From the IMG/VR virus record IMGVR_UViG_3300028027_000002, positions 1 through 64,000 of that record: DNA of 64,000 nt, one strand, 5' to 3'. The notes under the pieces are model-generated. The model saw nothing but the letters and a program-made list of their open reading frames with translations. It was not told the origin of the DNA and searched no databases. The stretch comes from a virus. Shown piece after piece: positions 1-6,043 of this stretch. The first letter of the stretch is position 1. Each line of letters starts with the position of its first letter. The position numbers and the translations under genes are program-made.

Positions 1-85
1 CTGAAATAATTTCTCCCTGCAAGGTGCGTGAGAAATACATTTTTCCTACAAGTAGGTTTTCTATTGTATAGACATTTGCTGACAT
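1..85 (-). CDS. Hypothetical early protein, 5' part (MSANVYTIENLLVGKMYFSRTLQGEIIS...), runs off the window
   Basis: Manually translated; ATG at 85-83 preceded by AGAAAGAGG SD and the promoter at 118-140; not in ORF track. Confidence 0.6.
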   Translation of the reverse strand, partial: MSANVYTIENLLVGKMYFSRTLQGEIIS

Positions 86-117
86 TTGCCAACCTCTTTC
101 TTTTTGTTATTAAATCT

Positions 118-140
118 ATCCTACCATGGGGGTCTGACAA
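118..140 (-). promoter_or_regulatory. Phage-type promoter TTGTCAGACCCCCATGGTAGGAT (conserved upstream box plus extended -10)
   Basis: Same 23-nt motif at 978-999 and 2099-2121, each upstream of a minus-strand SD-led ORF. Confidence 0.7.
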
Positions 141-170
141 ATCTTTGTTATTTATTTTTCTTACTATGTA

Positions 171-199
171 AGTTTAGCCTATTAGCCATAAATTATCAA
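171..199 (-). promoter_or_regulatory. Sigma70/SigA-type promoter TTGATA-17-TAAACT
   Basis: Near-consensus hexamers with 17-nt spacer, intergenic. Confidence 0.55.
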
Positions 200-240
200 G
201 TTACTAGCGAGTAAATCCAAATAGTGAGACGCTCAACCTA

Positions 241-256
241 TGTGATAAAACTCACA
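241..256. promoter_or_regulatory. CRP/GlxR-family palindrome TGTGA-N6-TCACA
   Basis: TGTGATAAAACTCACA, exact consensus. Confidence 0.6.
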
Positions 257-330
257 GAGTGGCGACACGCCCGACCGCGACGTCCCAAAAAATTGGGAGC
301 AGTTTTAGATCTTGCTCAGGATTTTATTTA

Positions 331-522
331 TTATGAATTAGTATTTGCTAAATCATTTACGCCACATGCAATTTTAAAAGTCATTGGATTAAATCTTGGG
401 TTATCAGATAAAAACATGTCTGAAAAATCATAGATTAAATCTTCAAAAGTAAATTGGTCAATTAACTCTGAATAACTTTTTAGAATTTCAGCGGTAGCGA
501 CATAGTCCTTGCGTGTCATCAT
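331..522 (-). CDS. Small hypothetical phage protein (MTRKDY...DNPRF type)
   Basis: ORF; TAATG coupling to upstream gene. Confidence 0.75.
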   Translation of the reverse strand: MMTRKDYVATAEILKSYSELIDQFTFEDLIYDFSDMFLSDNPRFNPMTFKIACGVNDLANTNS

Positions 523-728
523 TATTCTGCCACCTTTAGAATTGCATAGGTACCACGCTCATTTAGTTCATCAAGCACTGGCTGAATTTTTGGTGTAAGT
601 AATTCTTTTAGCATTCCTTCAAGAAGTGTTATTTGCATTTCGTTTTCTAGTGCAAGAAGTTGCATACCGATTGGGTGAGTTTCATCAACCTCAGTTACGA
701 ATTTTAGATTGTGTTCGATTTTTACCAT
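522..728 (-). CDS. Small hypothetical phage protein
   Basis: ORF in coupled operon, AGGA SD. Confidence 0.75.
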   Translation of the reverse strand: MVKIEHNLKFVTEVDETHPIGMQLLALENEMQITLLEGMLKELLTPKIQPVLDELNERGTYAILKVAE

Positions 729-746
729 TGTTAGTTTTCCTATTCT

Positions 747-944
747 TTAGTTTGAGTTAGTAAGTGTACGAGTGCCACGAAGTGTGCCACTTAGACCGAG
801 AGCATCGCAAGCGATTTTTACAGATACGCCAACAGGTAATTGTGTTGGGTATTGTGATACGAATTGAGCAACCGCACCCTTAGAGGCAAGGTTGATTTTT
901 TTGACAGAACCATTAAAGGTTTCTAGTGTTAGAGTGTAAGTCAT
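747..944 (-). CDS. Small hypothetical phage protein
   Basis: ORF with GAAAGGA SD, downstream of the promoter at 978-999. Confidence 0.75.
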   Translation of the reverse strand: MTYTLTLETFNGSVKKINLASKGAVAQFVSQYPTQLPVGVSVKIACDALGLSGTLRGTRTLTNSN

Positions 945-977
945 TGAGAGACTTCCTTTCGTTAAGTTGATAAGACT

Positions 978-999
978 ATCCTATCATGGGGGGCTGACA
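978..999 (-). promoter_or_regulatory. Phage-type promoter TGTCAGCCCCCCATGATAGGAT
   Basis: Second copy of the 23-nt motif. Confidence 0.7.
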
Positions 1000-1004
1000 T
1001 TTTT

Positions 1005-1066
1005 GCCACTTATTCGCTAAGGCTCATTGTGATTTACATCACACTTATTTGCTTAGGCTCATTGGC
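1005..1066 (-). ncRNA. Putative structured leader RNA, copy 1 (twin AUGAGCC-N-GCAAAUAAG element)
   Basis: GCCA/TGGC outer stem, two motif copies, inner TGTGAT/ATCACA hairpin; same architecture with different stems at 2480-2541. Confidence 0.6.
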
Positions 1067-1097
1067 TAAACTGTCATTATTTAATTGTTATAGTAGA

Positions 1098-1126
1098 ATA
1101 CTAGCAGATAAAAGTGAAAAAGTCAA
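1098..1126 (-). promoter_or_regulatory. Sigma70/SigA-type promoter TTGACT-17-TAGTAT (extended -10 TGC)
   Basis: Near-consensus hexamers, correct spacing. Confidence 0.65.
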
Positions 1127-1173
1127 GTTTAGACACGCACAAATCGGACATTTTCTATGTGATTTACATCATA

Positions 1174-1187
1174 CGAACATCTGTTCG
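1174..1187. promoter_or_regulatory. LexA (SOS) box, Gram-positive/actinobacterial type CGAAC-N4-GTTCG
   Basis: CGAACATCTGTTCG; abuts CRP-like site 1158-1173. Confidence 0.55.
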
Positions 1188-1218
1188 AAACGACGTCGTT
1201 TTTTTGCAGGGAATTTAT

Positions 1219-1308
1219 TTATTCAGTTACAAATAAATAAAACCCATAACACAAACAGATCATTGAAAACCAAAAGAGTGCATTTCCATTTACAAAAAAG
1301 TCAATCAT
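1219..1308 (-). CDS. 29-aa membrane micro-protein (MIDFFVNGNALFWFSMICLCYGFYLFVTE)
   Basis: Manually translated; abuts upstream stop; GAGG SD; hydrophobic. Confidence 0.55.
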   Translation of the reverse strand: MIDFFVNGNALFWFSMICLCYGFYLFVTE

Positions 1309-1449
1309 TTATTCAACCTCAATTTCTCTATAGTCAATAACATGAAAGTCAAGTTGTCTTTCTAGAGGCATAGCCTTTAGCCATGATAGTGCAGACTCAA
1401 AATCTTCTGCTTCAACATCAACGAATAACTCAAAATTAAAAATAGCCAT
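1309..1449 (-). CDS. 46-aa acidic hypothetical protein (MAIFNFELFVDVEAEDFESA...)
   Basis: Manually translated; AAAGGAG SD. Confidence 0.65.
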   Translation of the reverse strand: MAIFNFELFVDVEAEDFESALSWLKAMPLERQLDFHVIDYREIEVE

Positions 1450-1454
1450 TTTAT

Positions 1455-1619
1455 TTATTCTCCTTTCTTGTATAAAAAATCCCAAGCCTTACGGCATAAC
1501 ACGATAGACTTGCAGTTATCGCAACAGATAACACCATGAGGGTTTAACTCAAGGTCATACATGTCAATTGTGGTAGTTACTGCACCACATACAGATTTAA
1601 TTGGTACAAAGGTACTCAT
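1455..1619 (-). CDS. 54-aa Cys-containing hypothetical protein (..CGA..CCDNC..)
   Basis: Manually translated; ATGA overlap with upstream ORF. Confidence 0.65.
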   Translation of the reverse strand: MSTFVPIKSVCGAVTTTIDMYDLELNPHGVICCDNCKSIVLCRKAWDFLYKKGE

Positions 1620-1795
1620 TTAGAAACCTTCCAATCTGTCCACATAGGTAGACGCTCTGGGTCGGTATCGTTATACCAACGCTCAATGTTTTGTTCACAA
1701 TCTTGGCAGAAAGTGAATTGCTCATCTCCAATTTCTGAGATAGCAGATTTCATTGGATTGTGCTCTACGCACTTTTTATTTTCTAGTGTTATCAT
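1616..1795 (-). CDS. Small Zn-finger-like hypothetical protein (CxxH...CxxC)
   Basis: ORF track 1616..1804; start moved to ATG 1795 after AGAAAGG SD. Confidence 0.7.
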   Translation of the reverse strand: MITLENKKCVEHNPMKSAISEIGDEQFTFCQDCEQNIERWYNDTDPERLPMWTDWKVSK

Positions 1796-1862
1796 TTTTG
1801 ACAACCTTTCTTTTTTTTATTAGTTAATTTTTATTTATTAAGTTTTTTATTTCTCTAATTTC

Positions 1863-2045
1863 TTAGAGAGAGCGACCACATTGTGAGTGGTAGCAAGTAC
1901 GACCATAAGAGTCGCCATTTGTTGTACAAATGTCGTGAATTGTAGCGGGTGCAAGTATTACTTGACCGCATTGGCATAAATTCATCATGCCTTTAGGGTA
2001 ATCGCTAGTAGTAGCGAACCCTTGTCCAAATAGTGAATTACTCAT
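1863..2045 (-). CDS. Small Cys/His-rich hypothetical protein
   Basis: ORF with AGAAAGGAG SD, first gene after the promoter at 2099-2121. Confidence 0.7.
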   Translation of the reverse strand: MSNSLFGQGFATTSDYPKGMMNLCQCGQVILAPATIHDICTTNGDSYGRTCYHSQCGRSL

Positions 2046-2098
2046 TTAGTAACTCCTTTCTGTTAAATAACCTTTATTTAACTTTCTTTATACTAGTA

Positions 2099-2121
2099 AG
2101 TATAGCAGGGGGGTCTGACAA
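2099..2121 (-). promoter_or_regulatory. Phage-type promoter TTGTCAGACCCCCCTGCTATACT
   Basis: Third copy of the 23-nt motif. Confidence 0.7.
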
Positions 2122-2153
2122 ATAGCAGGGTATAAAAGGTATAAATCGGACAT

Positions 2154-2185
2154 TGTGATGTAGCACACATGTGATGTACACCACA
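2154..2185. promoter_or_regulatory. Two tandem CRP/GlxR-like sites
   Basis: TGTGATGTAGCACACA and TGTGATGTACACCACA, one mismatch each. Confidence 0.45.
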
Positions 2186-2189
2186 TTAG

Positions 2190-2209
2190 TTATACACAGG
2201 TTATCCACA
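2190..2209 (+). promoter_or_regulatory. Two tandem DnaA boxes
   Basis: TTATACACA (2190-2198) and TTATCCACA (2201-2209). Confidence 0.6.
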
Positions 2210-2216
2210 GGGGACG

Positions 2217-2370
2217 TCCCCTATATACCCCCCTATATAGGTACCCCTATATGTACCCCCCTATATAGGCGTATACGCCCAAGACTGGTCATGTGCATAT
2301 AGGCCTAAGACCAGTCATGTGCCTATGCACCTAAGATCAGTCATGTGTATATGCGCCTAAGACTGGTCAT
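2217..2370. repeat. Repeat block: 4x CCCCTATAT motif, then about 3.5 copies of a 26-bp tandem repeat (CCtAAGAcyrGTCATGTG...); iteron/origin-like
   Basis: 26-bp units start at 2278, 2304, 2330, 2356; lies at the strand switch. Confidence 0.8.
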
Positions 2371-2382
2371 TTAGACGTCCCG

Positions 2383-2398
2383 TGTGATGCGAATCACA
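2383..2398. promoter_or_regulatory. CRP/GlxR-family palindrome
   Basis: TGTGATGCGAATCACA exact consensus, upstream of the -35 at 2420. Confidence 0.6.
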
Positions 2399-2419
2399 TG
2401 CGACACGCCGTGTTATAAC

Positions 2420-2448
2420 TTGACTTTTGGGGGTAGATGTGTTATTAT
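2420..2448 (+). promoter_or_regulatory. Sigma70/SigA-type promoter TTGACT-17-TATTAT
   Basis: Near-consensus with TG extension. Confidence 0.7.
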
Positions 2449-2479
2449 ACTAGTATAAGAAAAATTAAATAGAGATAAA

Positions 2480-2541
2480 AGGTTATGAGCCTAGCAAATA
2501 AGATAACGAATTGTTATATGAGCCTAGCAAATAAGTGACCT
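2480..2541 (+). ncRNA. Putative structured leader RNA, copy 2
   Basis: AGGTTA/TGACCT outer stem, 2x ATGAGCCTAGCAAATAAG, inner ATAAC/GTTAT hairpin. Confidence 0.6.
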
Positions 2542-2642
2542 AAATCACAAGCCTCACGCTCCACATAGTGAGACTACTAGTGAGTATACTAGACAGTACG
2601 GGAAATGTCTGCTAGTATTACTACTATAACAATTAAATAAAA

Positions 2643-2707
2643 AAGTTTGAGCCTTTAGGGTGAGCCTCTAGAAAATAGAGCAAATAAATCTAAAGCAAAT
2701 AAAACTT
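2643..2707 (+). ncRNA. Putative structured leader RNA, nested variant
   Basis: Hairpin with two GAGCC/GCAAATAA internal loops separated by paired stems. Confidence 0.55.
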
Positions 2708-2747
2708 AGCCCCTATTAACTAATAAAAAAAGAAAGGTGGTCTATAA

Positions 2748-2954
2748 ATGACTACATTAAGTAACTACTCTAACATAGAGGTAGGCGATACCATTACCCT
2801 ACCTAATTGCATGAACCTTGTTAAATCAGGGGTAATTGTAAAAATTAGAAAATGGAATGGTAGCGCAATGCGTGTTATCTGCTCCAATGGTGCTATTTTT
2901 GAGTTAAATAAGCACAAGCGTGATTTTATCCTCACTAGAGAGGAGAATAACTAA
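2748..2954 (+). CDS. Small hypothetical protein (possible SH3/KOW-like beta fold)
   Basis: ORF with AGAAAGGTGG SD. Confidence 0.7.
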   Translation: MTTLSNYSNIEVGDTITLPNCMNLVKSGVIVKIRKWNGSAMRVICSNGAIFELNKHKRDFILTREENN

Positions 2955-3043
2955 TGAGCCTACCCCTTATTGTCCTAGCCTTGTCAGTGCTATCCGCTAT
3001 AATTGTGCTTATCCCTACTATGTTAGATAAGAGTGAATTCTAA
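2954..3043 (+). CDS. 29-aa membrane micro-protein (MSLPLIVLALSVLSAIIVLIPTMLDKSEF)
   Basis: Manually translated; GAGGAG SD; TAATG coupling at both ends. Confidence 0.65.
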   Translation: MSLPLIVLALSVLSAIIVLIPTMLDKSEF

Positions 3044-3147
3044 TGCACTTATACTTATGCTCATCATGCAACACGCTTGCAATCGTTACCCAAAAAGGAA
3101 AACAAATAACAATCAACCCCTGCTCATGCACTAAAGAAAAGAGATAA
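3043..3147 (+). CDS. 34-aa Zn-ribbon-like micro-protein (CSSC...CSC)
   Basis: Manually translated; TAATG coupling. Confidence 0.6.
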   Translation: MHLYLCSSCNTLAIVTQKGKQITINPCSCTKEKR

Positions 3148-3151
3148 ATAA

Positions 3152-3361
3152 ATGAACACAAATACATGCAAGGTAATTAACTGCGACTCAACAGAGTTGG
3201 TCTATAGTGGAACAGATGCCTTTATGCTAGGCATCAACACAGAAACCTATTGCTATAAGTGCGCTAATGCTTATGCACAAATAGATAGAGTTATGTCTAA
3301 GGTAAGACAAGATTACCTAGACTCGCTCACTCCTCCATCAACACTCACTACATCAGACTAA
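3152..3361 (+). CDS. Small Cys-containing hypothetical protein
   Basis: ORF; CxxxxC...CxxC. Confidence 0.7.
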   Translation: MNTNTCKVINCDSTELVYSGTDAFMLGINTETYCYKCANAYAQIDRVMSKVRQDYLDSLTPPSTLTTSD

Positions 3362-3370
3362 GGAGAATAA

Positions 3371-3661
3371 ATGTTCGATTTTATTTCTGCACCATTTGAG
3401 TGGTTTGCCAATGTTGTGCAATACTCGCTCATTTTTATGGCGGTAATGATGCTAGTGCTAACAATAGGCGCGGTGGTTGCAATTCCTTTAGGTCTAAAAC
3501 TTTTAGGTGTTGCATTCGCTAAAACTATTGTAGTAGAAACTAGCAAGGTACTAAGAGACATAGGTATTACTAACATAGACCTCAAGCAAGCAAAAGAAAA
3601 CGAAAAAATGAAGGCTTGGGTAGATCGCAAGGTGGTACCGATACTAAGTAAATCTGGTTAG
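3371..3661 (+). CDS. Hypothetical membrane protein
   Basis: AAGGAG SD; long hydrophobic segment. Confidence 0.75.
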   Translation: MFDFISAPFEWFANVVQYSLIFMAVMMLVLTIGAVVAIPLGLKLLGVAFAKTIVVETSKVLRDIGITNIDLKQAKENEKMKAWVDRKVVPILSKSG

Positions 3662-3686
3662 CACCACCCAGTAGTATTTATTAAGT

Positions 3687-3721
3687 AGGTACCAGTAGTT
3701 AAATAAAAATTGCTGGTACCT
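3687..3721. terminator. Hairpin ending the rightward early operon
   Basis: AGGTACCAGTA/TGCTGGTACCT inverted repeat. Confidence 0.55.
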
Positions 3722-3906
3722 CTTACTAAATAAAATAAAAATAAATAAAAAAATAAATTAACATCAAAATTTTGGGACGTTTATGTGCTCACTATATTTT
3801 TGCCCTACTTTTTTTAAAACCCTGCATCATACATCTGGTAAAAATATTCAGATTTTGGGGTATTTGAATTTTTGAAATTTTTTCAGAATGGTGCTATAAT
3901 TGGTCC

Positions 3907-3993
3907 ATGACCGAAGAAAAGTTAACCCTGTGTTGCGATGCATGCACATGCACCAACTCACACAGATCAGCACCACCAACAGACCAAGAATAG
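3907..3993 (+). CDS. 28-aa Cys-rich leaderless micro-protein (MTEEKLTLCCDACTCTNSHRSAPPTDQE)
   Basis: TGCTATAAT at 3892-3900, ATG 6 nt later. Confidence 0.55.
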   Translation: MTEEKLTLCCDACTCTNSHRSAPPTDQE

Positions 3994-4019
3994 TCAAGGC
4001 TGTTTAGGGGTATCCTGAC

Positions 4020-4664
4020 ATGTACATACACATAGAATCACTTGAAAGAAGTGGCAGCACCTTCTTTGCCTATGCAATTTCTTTGGCAACTGGGATAGAC
4101 GTTAAATCAAGTCCAGATCACAAACTATACCCACTACAAACATATGACGGTATAGATCCTTTTATAATCACATTAAGAGATGCTCTTCCATCCATAGTGT
4201 CTGCAAAAATATATAGAGATTATTTTTACAACAACAAACTCTCTAACTCCTATGACATAGAAAACACACTCTTAGAGAACATAATTGCCAGGTATAAAGA
4301 GTACACCCAATACCTAATAGACAACCCTAAATTCTTTATAGCACCATTTCAAGAATTTACAAAGGATCATAACAAGGTAATAGATCTAATAGCCTACACA
4401 TATCCAAGCATAAAGAATGTAAGGCCAGTAACCTATGAAGATATTGCTGAGAGAGCAGCCCATGTAATTAAAACAGTATATCAGCCTGAAATTGGAAACC
4501 TTCCAAGAGAAAAGCATGAGAAAAAGGACGAAATAGAAAAACTTATTTTAAAAGATTATTCAGATGATATAGATTATATTCAGTCTAACATAAACAAACT
4601 ATATAATAAATATTATGCTCTAGAGTTAGAGTATAACAAAAATACGACAGGAGATAAAAAATAA
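4020..4664 (+). CDS. Sulfotransferase-like (P-loop) protein
   Basis: ERSGSTFF (5'-PSB-like) and LRDALPSIVS (3'-PB-like); paralog of 5447..6043. Confidence 0.55.
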   Translation: MYIHIESLERSGSTFFAYAISLATGIDVKSSPDHKLYPLQTYDGIDPFIITLRDALPSIVSAKIYRDYFYNNKLSNSYDIENTLLENIIARYKEYTQYLIDNPKFFIAPFQEFTKDHNKVIDLIAYTYPSIKNVRPVTYEDIAERAAHVIKTVYQPEIGNLPREKHEKKDEIEKLILKDYSDDIDYIQSNINKLYNKYYALELEYNKNTTGDKK

Positions 4665-4874
4665 ATGGGAATACTAGAAAATTTTGAAAACGCCTGGGAC
4701 ATAGATTTCCAGGAAGAACCAAAGGCTCCTGAATTCGAATCTAAGCCTATGCCAATAACAGATAACATGGGAAGAGAATTATTTTGGGAAGATGCAGGAC
4801 GCCCAGAAGAGACATCACTGTCTGTAAAATTATTTTCAGATACTGTTTGTTCTAACTGTTCTTGTAAAGACTAA
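4665..4874 (+). CDS. Hypothetical protein, C-terminal CxxCxC
   Basis: ORF, AGGAG SD. Confidence 0.7.
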   Translation: MGILENFENAWDIDFQEEPKAPEFESKPMPITDNMGRELFWEDAGRPEETSLSVKLFSDTVCSNCSCKD

Positions 4875-4877
4875 AGC

Positions 4878-5426
4878 ATGCAAGAACTTGCTCCAGGTAT
4901 AGTGCTATATAGTGATGTAATTAAAAATTATTCTGAAGTAAGGGATAGAATACAATCAACTGAGCCTATCTGGGAAGCAGCAAAGACAATGTCTGGTGAG
5001 GAAAAAGAATATAGAGATACCGATCTATCTGTTGTTAAATATAAAATTTCAGAAAACACTAATGATTTTGCTAAAGACATATCTAGAACCTTTTCCAATT
5101 CTTTTGAAAAAATAGAAAAAGAGTACATGGCCTCCTATAAAACCTATTGTCCAGATCACACAAACTATGCAATATTAAGATACGGCAAAGGTCAATTTTT
5201 TACAGATCACATTGATGATTTTCACGGTATAGACAGGCGCATATCTTCAGTGTATTATCTAAATGATAACTTTACTGGAGGGGTAATATCGTTTCCAAGA
5301 TTTAATATATCTTATCAGCCAGTTGCAAACGAGTTACTCTTATTTCCGTCTGCATACGTATACAATCACTCGATAAGCCCAGTAGAAGAAGGAACCCGAT
5401 ACTCTGTTGTTTCTTGGATGAAATAA
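4878..5426 (+). CDS. 2OG-Fe(II) oxygenase, prolyl-4-hydroxylase-like
   Basis: HID...YYLND.F.GG.I.F...H...V..G.RYS. Confidence 0.85.
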   Translation: MQELAPGIVLYSDVIKNYSEVRDRIQSTEPIWEAAKTMSGEEKEYRDTDLSVVKYKISENTNDFAKDISRTFSNSFEKIEKEYMASYKTYCPDHTNYAILRYGKGQFFTDHIDDFHGIDRRISSVYYLNDNFTGGVISFPRFNISYQPVANELLLFPSAYVYNHSISPVEEGTRYSVVSWMK

Positions 5427-5446
5427 CTTAGTGGTAAAATAATAAT

Positions 5447-6043
5447 ATGAAAATATACATTGACGGTTTAGAAAGATCTGGTAACACATTTTTGGCGGGA
5501 TCAATAGGTTACACACTTGGTATACAAGCAGTACCACTATGGTCACATAAGGTTGAAACATTAGAAAACAGAGATATAGAATATCCATTTGTAGTTCCTT
5601 TGAGAGACGTGTTACCATCTATAACATCTGCAAAGTTGTACAGAGACTATGTTACTGCTAATAACATTCAGACTAACAAAAGAACTGGTGAACCAGAAGA
5701 ACTTATTGAAAGGTATTCGTCTTATATAAAATATCTTAAAAGCGACACAGATTTATTCATTGCTCCATTTTCAGAATTTACAAAAGATCATAATGCTGTA
5801 GTTAATGTTATTGCTAAAGAAAATAACTTGCCAATAAATCAAATATATACATCAGAAGAAATTATTAAGAAAATAGGAGAAAACCCAAAGTTGGATAATC
5901 CATACACTGGAAACTTCCCAAGAGAACATGCAAAAGAATACAAGGATGTAGAAAACTTGTTTCTTTCAAAATATAAATCAGATATAGACTATATGCAAAA
6001 AAATATAAATATACTATATCAAAGGTATTACGAAAAGTTATAA
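5447..6043 (+). CDS. Sulfotransferase-like (P-loop) protein
   Basis: GLERSGNTFL and LRDVLPSITS motifs; leaderless promoter 5432-5440. Confidence 0.55.
   Translation: MKIYIDGLERSGNTFLAGSIGYTLGIQAVPLWSHKVETLENRDIEYPFVVPLRDVLPSITSAKLYRDYVTANNIQTNKRTGEPEELIERYSSYIKYLKSDTDLFIAPFSEFTKDHNAVVNVIAKENNLPINQIYTSEEIIKKIGENPKLDNPYTGNFPREHAKEYKDVENLFLSKYKSDIDYMQKNINILYQRYYEKL

Follow-up and report, generated by a model that had tools for sequence, protein, structure and literature searches.

Both genome arms of this phage are headed by a structured RNA element in which copies of a single asymmetric internal loop are framed by helices of freely varying sequence. The element is almost certainly a real structured RNA family, widespread and strongly covarying in a large clade of uncultured phages whose hosts are probably Actinobacteria, and the family is new as judged from searches of Rfam 15 and the literature, which returned no match. 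Detailed knowledge of structured leader RNAs able to reprogram transcription is, as far as we are aware, limited to a few E. coli phages (nut and put). The design found here is simple and unusual in that one internal loop is reused as a building block, and its position at the head of both arms is conserved. It provides a new RNA module, the partner of which can be captured with a 65-nt bait, and a testable handle on the control of two very long transcription units in hosts whose termination is poorly understood. The freely varying helices can also double as operators for host regulators, the operators in this case being predicted.

Copies of the element in this genome

In the window (the whole stretch of 64,000 nucleotides that was analysed), the motif was found as two exact 18-mers on the plus strand, against an expected count of 0.13 per window with up to three mismatches permitted, and as two copies of a 19-nt variant, with one additional base in mid-motif, on the minus strand. 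Both twins lie where the preliminary description had placed them, with the letters it had quoted (Table 1). The whole 111,870-bp genome contained no other motif copies except a rearranged third element on the plus strand, which matched model R1 only partially (19.3 bits, E 0.008) and for which the minimum-energy fold gave exactly the nesting listed. The XXYY layout of this third element, as well as an XXXYY layout, recurs at other loci with covarying connector helices.

The outer stems of the left and right hairpins begin 31 and 32 nt past the ends of the -10 hexamers, in agreement with the distance of about 30 nt from TTGACT-17 promoters noted earlier. At the second rightward promoter-like site, the -10 and the leader are repeats of those of the left promoter.

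Table 1. Putative promoters, leader boxes and hairpins around the divergent control region (window positions)
Feature	Position	Strand	Details
Leftward sigma-A-type promoter driving the left element	1098..1126	-	TTGACT, 17 nt, TG-extended TAGTAT
First rightward sigma-A-type promoter	2420..2448	+	TTGACT, 17 nt, TG-extended TATTAT
Second rightward promoter-like site	2590..2618	+	TAGACA, 17 nt, TG-extended TAGTAT
A-rich leader box between -10 and left hairpin	1077..1086	-	AATTAAATAA on transcribed strand
A-rich leader box, first rightward leader	2463..2471	+	AATTAAATA
A-rich leader box, second rightward leader	2631..2639	+	AATTAAATA
Left twin-module hairpin	1005..1066	-	model R1 77 bits, E 1.8e-19
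Left hairpin, helices	P1 1063-1066/1005-1008; P2 1052-1056/1017-1021; P3 hairpin 1028-1043	-	P3 a perfect TGTGAT-N4-ATCACA palindrome
Left hairpin, motifs	motif 1, 1044-1062; motif 2, 1009-1027	-	19-nt variant
Right twin-module hairpin	2481..2540	+	model R1 73.8 bits, E 1.5e-18
Right hairpin, helices	P1 2481-2484(5)/2536-2540; P2 2491-2494/2524-2527; P3 2503-2517	+	one U.G pair in P1
Right hairpin, motifs	motif 1, 2485-2502; motif 2, 2518-2535	+	exact 18-mer
Third element	2643..2707	+	two modules nested head-to-tail
Third element, helices	P1 2643-2648/2702-2707; connector helix 2653-2659/2689-2695; hairpin 2666-2680	+	
Third element, loop strands	GAGC 1, 2649-2652; GUGAGC 2, 2660-2665; CAAAUAA, 2681-2688 and 2696-2701	+	

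Fold and covariation of the nested hairpin

It had been proposed that the outer stem and inner hairpin change completely in sequence and yet stay paired, and this was borne out in 96 distinct twins. With counts anchored at the motif edges, P1 positions 1-4 were Watson-Crick paired in 85-90% of these twins, with at least four pair types at each position, and P3 positions 1-5 in 97-100% (position 5: 65/72, about 90%). In a MAFFT alignment made without reference to the fold, pairing was seen in 93.8% of cells compared with 65.4% after shuffling, the covariation score was 0.565 versus 0.121 for shuffled alignments, and slid controls paired in 24-46%; RNAalifold recovered P1, P2 and P3 unaided. A second sample of loci, retrieved via a neighbouring protein and not via the motif, carried the element at 79 of 80 loci, and here 93.4% of cells paired against 72.1% when shuffled (P2 pair GC 50, CG 12, UA 4). 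Covariation among homologues, on which the preliminary description had made its proposal depend, was present in both samples. Together with the absence of an Rfam match and the location on the transcribed strand after promoters, this upholds the view of an undescribed structured RNA.

The notion of two separately presented loops, in contrast, had to be given up. Helix P2 is formed by the central CU(N)AG of motif copy 1 pairing with that of copy 2, with compensatory changes (G-C to C-G in six cases and G-C to U-A in one), and a base inserted in P2 is always complementary between the motif copies (A-U, U-A or G-C). As the two copies pair in this manner, every motif supplies a strand to both of the identical internal loops that P2 joins. 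The repeating unit proper is hence an asymmetric internal loop, with 5'-NUGAGC-3' facing 5'-CAAAUAAR-3', of which each hairpin holds two or three in either orientation. The loop measures 6 x 8 nt and has eleven invariant bases, an invariance that is partly an ascertainment effect because loci were fetched by the exact motif or via close relatives. Within it, U15-A16-A17-R18 faces U2-G3-A4-G5, every base being invariant save R18, while A14, the most variable loop base, faces G5/C6 and has no complementary partner. Modules are nested two or three deep on covarying connector helices, and neither the spacing nor the orientation between them is fixed. The 46 distinct P3 hairpins have freely varying loops, ten of which are GNRA tetraloops, on the sense strand only, and the core pairs include 14 G.U versus 3 A.C.

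Among known modules, UAA/GAN and loop-E (S-turn) motifs (PMC2615604) resemble the element in that an adenine-rich UAA(R) strand faces (U)GAG, and the UAA of the element does lie opposite GAN. On its sequence the loop could adopt a U.A Hoogsteen pair, a sheared G.A pair and an adenine stack. Both modules, which belong to ribosomal and other structured RNAs (Jaeger et al. 2009, PMC2615604), are known docking surfaces. The UAA/GAN consensus (ccUAAg / uGAagg) requires, however, a Watson-Crick pair right beside the U (PMC2615604), whereas in the element the base 5' of U15 is the unpartnered A14, and the UAA/GAN handle (the UA_handle X1:X5 pair on U.A) was consequently rejected; the loop is also larger. 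A kink-turn, defined by a bulge of three bases and then tandem G.A and A.G pairs, needs GA beside the helix on its non-bulged strand, where the element has AG (A17, G18), and a likeness to the hammerhead was ruled out by sequence register. A mini-ORF (AUG ... UAA in the 19-nt motif) was likewise discarded, as the frame is shifted in the 18-nt form and covariation ties the first base to the final one of the partner strand.

Distribution and placement among phages

The view that the element is not a known family was confirmed with cmscan against Rfam 15, in which no family reached its gathering threshold over positions 1-6000, two small regions being searched with lax filters. The best overlapping match, to RAGATH-7-assoc, scored 12.8 bits (threshold 88.5, E 5.3). 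In the literature, a 15-mer of the motif was found in no paper, and 10-mer matches were PCR primers. Searches of the INPHARED cultured phages by blastn, with the region and with the 67-nt element, yielded nothing beyond chance, and model R1 found no copy in the three Streptomyces phages that are closest by portal protein. Among bacterial genomes, the twin pattern matched no isolate genome and only 11 MAG contigs, eight of which scored as twins (36.8-80.4 bits) and resemble phage DNA; two (L132 and L133, from an Alloprevotella-labelled MAG) are tandem arrays of ~33-nt repeats. In IMG/VR, by comparison, over 119 loci carry the motif and hundreds of related phage contigs keep the element.

The element is confined to the central control region. 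The large related genomes carry one to three twin hairpins each, all inside a single stretch of 1.5-2.2 kb, and wherever both strands carry copies these face outwards (35/35 pairs divergent, 0.26-3 kb apart). Leaders hold two (115 cases), three (16), four (18) or five (12) modules, with up to seven per locus. The genes downstream belong to at least 12 unrelated families, the first of them differing between lineages, so the element is not the operator of one gene. On one distant contig three copies share a strand; two of these follow a PafBC-type promoter directly and do not surround an origin.

A promoter of the same sigma-A-type class as the left one precedes the element in 62 of 106 distinct upstream contexts of related loci, and in 86 of them (81%) a sense promoter lies 40-60 nt upstream. 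A T[TA]AATA box is present 8-40 nt upstream in 76/106 contexts (5% in the background), and a same-strand ORF begins 25-400 nt downstream of 154 of the 161 element copies. Many other strong promoters of the left arm, and most other promoters of the phage, lack the element. From this arrangement we infer that the element forms roughly the first 30-100 nt of transcripts that would leave the central control region in both directions. The earlier assignment to both divergent early transcripts stands as regards divergence, but the word early is only partly apt, because the right arm so headed spans 92 kb and includes structural genes (the left arm, 19 kb).

Possible function of the leader

The reading we favour, though tentatively, is that the element acts in cis and co-transcriptionally as a nut/put-like loading site. 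Each copy would form one extended hairpin in which P1, P2 and P3 (and connector helices elsewhere) serve only as a scaffold for two or three copies of the asymmetric loop. The invariant loop nucleotides, probably a non-Watson-Crick stack with exposed adenines, would be the working surface recognised by a trans-acting reader. The nascent leader would load a factor onto the elongating polymerase, or bind polymerase itself, so that transcription of both long arms resists termination. Reading by some factor, the nature of that factor and the effect on transcription are thus presumed, while the placement is nut/put-like by virtue of the uniformly divergent pairs, the single control region, the selectivity among promoters and the unrelated downstream genes.

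The put RNA, which mediates cis-acting, factor-independent antitermination, consists of two adjacent stem-loops with conserved bases specific to put. In the lambdoid phage HK022, putL and putR are paired structured RNAs of ~65-70 nt encoded just past the two divergent early promoters, so that each arm has one in the sense direction whatever genes follow. The element shares these features, and was likewise found on the sense strand past both divergent promoters. In contrast to put, the element is a single nested hairpin (P1-loop-P2-loop-P3) with no likeness in sequence or fold, its copy number per leader varies, and the host is probably an actinobacterium rather than E. coli; antitermination by the element is putative. 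Lambda nutL and nutR (boxA and boxB, read by N and Nus factors) share the leader position on both early arms and the succession of a conserved linear box (A-rich TTAAATA in the element) and a hairpin. However, boxB is a 15-nt hairpin read via its loop by an arginine-rich peptide of the N type encoded nearby, whereas in the element it is the internal loops that are conserved, the hairpin loops varying freely. A lambda nut site was rejected in view of the 46 distinct P3 hairpins, the variable first gene and the lack of a significant fold match for gpL1. A scan for intrinsic terminators found 15 downstream on the right side, compared with 10.7 expected (background level), and only a small number in sense orientation in the left arm, so that a need for antitermination finds no support in these counts.

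No conserved reader gene, and no conserved N-like gene, was found adjoining the element. The two best-conserved neighbours are gpL1 and gpL4, and both were dismissed as readers. For gpL1 (747-944, minus strand), RNA binding is unsupported, as its best PDB matches have E 0.3 or worse; its AlphaFold model (pLDDT 85) has a beta-beta-alpha-beta-beta fold, with a best Foldseek E of 0.34 and AcrIF9 and Dmd as top PDB matches. The gpL4 family (MSANVY...) forms a small SH3/KOW/Tudor-like barrel, but at Z 4-5 its matches are at noise level. Both are missing from G016, a distant MAG whose 85-kb contig carries three good element copies. Since distant phages that keep the module share neither protein, a host factor such as RNA polymerase seems a more likely reader than a phage protein. 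Activation of the host regulator PafBC by the RNA was weakened as a candidate by a published report in which PafBC was not activated by a 12-nt single-stranded RNA (PMC11804915).

In one specific form, which we regard as rather doubtful, the module would be a portable tag with direct affinity for host RNA polymerase or for a universal host factor of elongation or decay. If this is true, phages of Actinobacteria would possess a put-like system that rests on a new modular three-dimensional RNA motif, with the free helices co-opted for host operators (CRP-like, LexA-box and PafBC-type). One 65-nt stretch would then act as both DNA and RNA.

Nut and put sites occur once per operon. Leaders with up to five modules therefore fit better with a sponge or avidity model, in which the leader, perhaps processed free, would act in trans by titrating or redirecting a host or phage RNA-binding protein. 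Conceivable targets of such a sponge, which we consider unlikely overall, include ribonucleases, sensors of a defence system and regulators of translation. The repetition of the module, its free spacing and orientation, which resemble those of independent binding sites, and the strong promoters from which the leaders issue are all consistent with it, and CsrB/RsmZ-type sponges similarly repeat a short conserved site on variable helices (two to five times in the element). Those sponges, however, are made as small RNAs in their own right, each ended by its own terminator and with sites in hairpin loops, whereas the element always forms the 5' part of a predicted mRNA, has no terminator of its own and presents its sites as internal loops. 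Nor would a sponge, for which no candidate partner is known, need the strict outward placement on two arms.

It is also quite improbable that the element is a 5' stabiliser, processing site or translation element that sets the stability or translation of the first genes. Nearly every copy does sit in a 5' untranslated region, and a long quasi-continuous hairpin, counting ~25-28 stacked layers should its loops adopt non-canonical pairs, might, perhaps with bound protein, block 5'-end-dependent decay by RNase J or RNase E. However, the hairpin is not at the extreme 5' end: a single-stranded A-rich leader precedes it, and it begins ~25-30 nt past the predicted start site. Alternatively, a double-strand-specific nuclease could cut the hairpin, as RNase III does with the hairpins of T7 early RNA that contain internal loops. 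Both kinds of hairpin have conserved internal loops and belong to early phage transcripts, but the T7 sites are intergenic, occur once per junction and show modest loop conservation, and cleavage of the element is only putative. Eleven invariant loop bases exceed the needs of a structural barrier or of RNase III, most other promoters of the phage lack the element, and the start codon follows it at anything from 25 to 400 nt.

A riboswitch-like loop that senses a ligand, in tandem for a cooperative response, is very unlikely: a highly conserved asymmetric leader loop is typical of small aptamers, and tandem aptamers are known, but neither a terminator nor a start-site-masking helix follows as an expression platform, the gene distance is variable and the module is tolerated in either orientation.

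A signal at the DNA level is just as unlikely, be it a duplex operator repeat or single-strand initiation hairpins flanking the replication origin (RSF1010-type ssi). The copies flank a DnaA-box/iteron-like stretch (2190-2381) on opposite strands, the helices often carry palindromes for host transcription factors (CRP-like or LexA-box-like), and covariation alone fits RNA and single-stranded DNA equally well. A duplex operator was nevertheless rejected, as it would not need the compensatory changes by which the flanks keep pairing, and it would not survive the division into half-motifs by inserted helices that the nested copies show. Nesting in either orientation, GNRA loops on the sense strand only, the excess of G.U over A.C, sense promoters at a fixed distance and the downstream ORFs argue for RNA, and the three same-strand copies of the distant contig are not arranged around an origin.

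The left-copy P3 contains a perfect CRP/GlxR-type palindrome (TGTGA-N6-TCACA, 1028-1043), and a CRP-like half-palindrome with two mismatches (2534-2549) overlaps the 3' strand of the right-copy P1. The inner hairpin of the left copy is thereby a member of a dispersed family of CRP-like DNA palindromes, putative sites of which the genome holds 17, almost entirely in the control and early region.

Covariation and architecture of the hairpin

According to the preliminary description, the outer stem and inner hairpin of the element vary in sequence yet still pair, and this was borne out by the pair statistics of two samples. Scanning IMG/VR for the motif pattern yielded at least 119 loci, and from these 168 twin copies (96 distinct) were extracted. 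In a first pair count, alignment-free and anchored on the motif edges alone, the four bases flanking the motifs on the outside (outer stem, P1) were paired in 85-90% of copies with at least four pair types per position; in the inner hairpin (P3), the innermost five positions were paired in about 90-100%. A MAFFT alignment of 72 copies, built without reference to any fold, gave 93.8% paired cells versus 65.4% when shuffled and a covariation score of 0.565 versus 0.121, with 24-46% paired in control registers shifted by 1-3 columns; RNAalifold, unaided, recovered the same three helices (P1, P3 and P2, the helix between the two motif copies). As a second sample, avoiding the bias of fetching by motif, 80 loci were retrieved through the neighbouring small protein gpL1. 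The element was present in 79 of these, directly upstream of the gpL1 gene in 78, and 93.4% of cells were paired versus 72.1% when shuffled. Loop-base invariance is less impressive than it appears, since the 80 loci are closely related (78-94% protein identity), but the turnover of helix sequence is real.

The central CUAG of both motif copies pair with each other to form P2, and the hairpin order is therefore P1, loop, P2, loop, P3. An inserted fifth P2 base is always complementary across the copies (A-U, U-A or G-C), and the pair G10-C7' was exchanged for C-G six times and for U-A once among distinct IMG/VR twins (GC 50, CG 12 and UA 4 in the gpL1-fetched sample). Both loops are identical (NUGAGC on one strand, CAAAUAAR on the other) and are related by two-fold symmetry about an axis through P2. 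Covariation links the first base of one loop strand to the last of the other (A.G, G.A, U-A, G.U, C-G), so these bases face each other. Little or no variation is seen at U2, G3, A4, G5, C6, C11, A13, U15, A16 and A17, with A or G at R12, and A14 is the most variable loop base. The third copy of the window and many copies elsewhere have alternative layouts: either two modules (each one internal loop) are nested head-to-tail, as in the third copy, or three modules are present, one nested outside a twin, and the connector helices covary in every case. This reuse of the same loop in varied layouts with covarying connectors thus points to one internal-loop module as the unit of selection, and a single module is predicted to be functional in either orientation.

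Copies in the window and their genomic placement

The phage record comprises 111,870 bp with 99-bp terminal repeats, the window being its first 64 kb. The left and right sequences first reported were recovered letter for letter at their coordinates, together with a third copy, and no additional copy was found elsewhere in the whole genome. For the 18-mer, 0.13 matches would be expected per window, even allowing three mismatches. The promoter-like sites that had been claimed ahead of both copies (TTGACT-17-TA...T) were confirmed; they are TG-extended, lie on the strand of their element and end 31-32 nt ahead of its outer stem. In 72% of contexts (5% background), the stretch from the -10 to the hairpin includes a conserved A-rich box, T[TA]AATA, and AAAUAA is common to this leader box and the long loop strand.

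Features of the element region in the window
Feature	Position	Strand	Basis
gpL1, small conserved early protein	747-944	-	
19-nt motif form, one additional central base	1044-1062, 1009-1027	-	sequence match
Exact 18-mer	2485-2502, 2518-2535	+	sequence match
Third promoter-like site, ahead of third element copy	2590-2618	+	promoter scan
Third, rearranged element copy	2643-2707	+	sequence, folding, match to R1 (covariance model of the twin hairpin)

Rightward genes extend from 2.7 to about 94 kb; the leftward set begins at 2.0 kb, passes the ends and reaches about 95 kb. The three elements therefore head both arms. In the 31 loci that have the element on both strands, every one of the 35 pairs was divergent (spacing 0.26-3 kb). 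R1 found one to three twins in 12 of 14 related genomes of 100-119 kb that are nearly complete, always confined in those 12 to one 1.5-2.2 kb region. As the left arm contains many further strong sigma-70-like promoters that lack the element, and downstream genes come from at least 12 small-protein families unrelated to one another, the element is neither a one-gene operator nor a general promoter appendage. By its placement, it marks transcripts leaving the control region.

Several other features were observed. The -10 hexamers sit within short palindromes (window 2443-2458 and, on the minus strand, 1095-1110; for example TTATAC-TA-GTATAA) readable as -10-like from both strands, and an antisense site at 2611-2583 was flagged by the scan. 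Four leftward promoter-like sites consist of TGTCAG-N-CCCCC and then a TG-extended -10 (window 998, 2119 and 138 (-), genome 110,444 (-)); the one at 998 (-) begins 6 nt past the left RNA element, an adjacency (…aaaatgtcag…) kept in most left-type copies. At the distal end of the left arm (genome 95,222 (-)), facing the right-arm end, a TTGACT promoter-like site with the same ATTAAATAA box as the element leaders occurs without the RNA element. Between the divergent promoters, window 2190-2381 contains repeats of CCCCTATAT, a 26-bp repeat in about 3.5 copies and a sequence resembling a DnaA box, and looks like an origin with RNA elements on both sides.

RNA reading, known families and candidate roles

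Sequence comparison favours a sense-strand RNA over DNA, because a sense promoter lies at a fixed distance upstream in 86 of 106 distinct upstream contexts (TTGACN-17 in 62, TGTCRG in 23), a same-strand ORF follows 25-400 nt downstream in 154 of 161 copies, GNRA tetraloops close 10 of 46 distinct inner hairpins and the reverse form none, core pairs include 14 G.U versus 3 A.C, and a distant contig carries three copies on one strand, two of which lie directly behind a promoter of the type of the host regulator PafBC rather than around an origin. Covariation by itself would also be compatible with single-stranded DNA hairpins; a duplex operator would have no need of compensatory changes and would not survive splitting by inserted helices. 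A DNA-level signal of either kind is very improbable.

The proposal of an undescribed structured RNA stands as regards the covarying fold and the lack of a match to the element in Rfam 15, but not as regards its architecture, since the motif copies are coupled through P2. The motif was not found in the published literature searched, nor the element in cultured phages, including the nearest portal-protein relatives (Streptomyces phages, Stanwilliamsviridae, 48% identity). Among 185,579 species genomes, the twin pattern was matched by only 11 MAG contigs and by no isolate genome. The loop is similar to the UAA/GAN module (consensus from PMC2615604) but fails its UA_handle closing pair. A kink-turn identity of the loop was rejected. 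The loop likewise resembles loop-E/S-turn motifs. Two Alloprevotella-MAG-binned contigs (L132:839-1260 and L133:5470-5880) contain direct repeats in tandem, each about 33 nt long with GATGAGCCTTAGCGAATAA and without twin-hairpin stems (R1 13-49 bits), a similar word in a different arrangement.

The best-conserved neighbours, gpL1 (80 of 114 loci) and gpL4 (68 of 114), were tested as candidate readers. The confident gpL1 model has a beta-beta-alpha-beta-beta fold with a faint likeness to the phage inhibitors AcrIF9 and Dmd, and no significant structural match to this fold was found; gpL4 (L138:17654-17857, minus strand), likewise a conserved early protein, is by predicted structure a small SH3/KOW/Tudor-like barrel, with Z only 4-5. 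The MAG with the distant 85-kb contig, on which three good copies lie, lacks both proteins; this makes a reader encoded by the host somewhat more likely. In position the element comes closest, among functional analogues, to putL/putR of HK022 and nutL/nutR of lambda, and it belongs to neither. A cis-acting, co-transcriptional role of this kind is tentatively ranked first; terminator scans gave no sign that antitermination is needed. A sponge or decoy, ranked second, is rather unlikely, a stabiliser or processing site, ranked third, still more so, and ligand sensing very improbable. A published finding that a short single-stranded RNA does not activate PafBC (PMC11804915) makes it less likely that the element acts by turning this regulator on.

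Helices and DNA-level palindromes

The freely varying helices seem to be reused as DNA-level signals. The TGTGA-N6-TCACA palindrome (CRP/GlxR consensus) has 17 sites with at most two mismatches, almost all within the control region and the early region of the left arm (window 241-2549; genome 95,130-110,500). The CRP-like palindrome at 1028-1043 forms P3 of the left element, and that at 2534-2549 partly coincides with the 3' strand of P1 in the right element; the flank there, tgacctaaatcaca, is kept in dozens of related loci. Upstream of the left promoter, a LexA-box-like palindrome, CGAAC-N4-GTTCG, adjoins a CRP-like box (window 1158-1187), and the LexA-box-like palindrome also forms P3 of the element in other phages (loci L042, L062, L070, L098, L106 and L123). 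In MAG contig L124, the 3' strand of the outer stem doubles as the TGTCGG box of a promoter of PafBC type.
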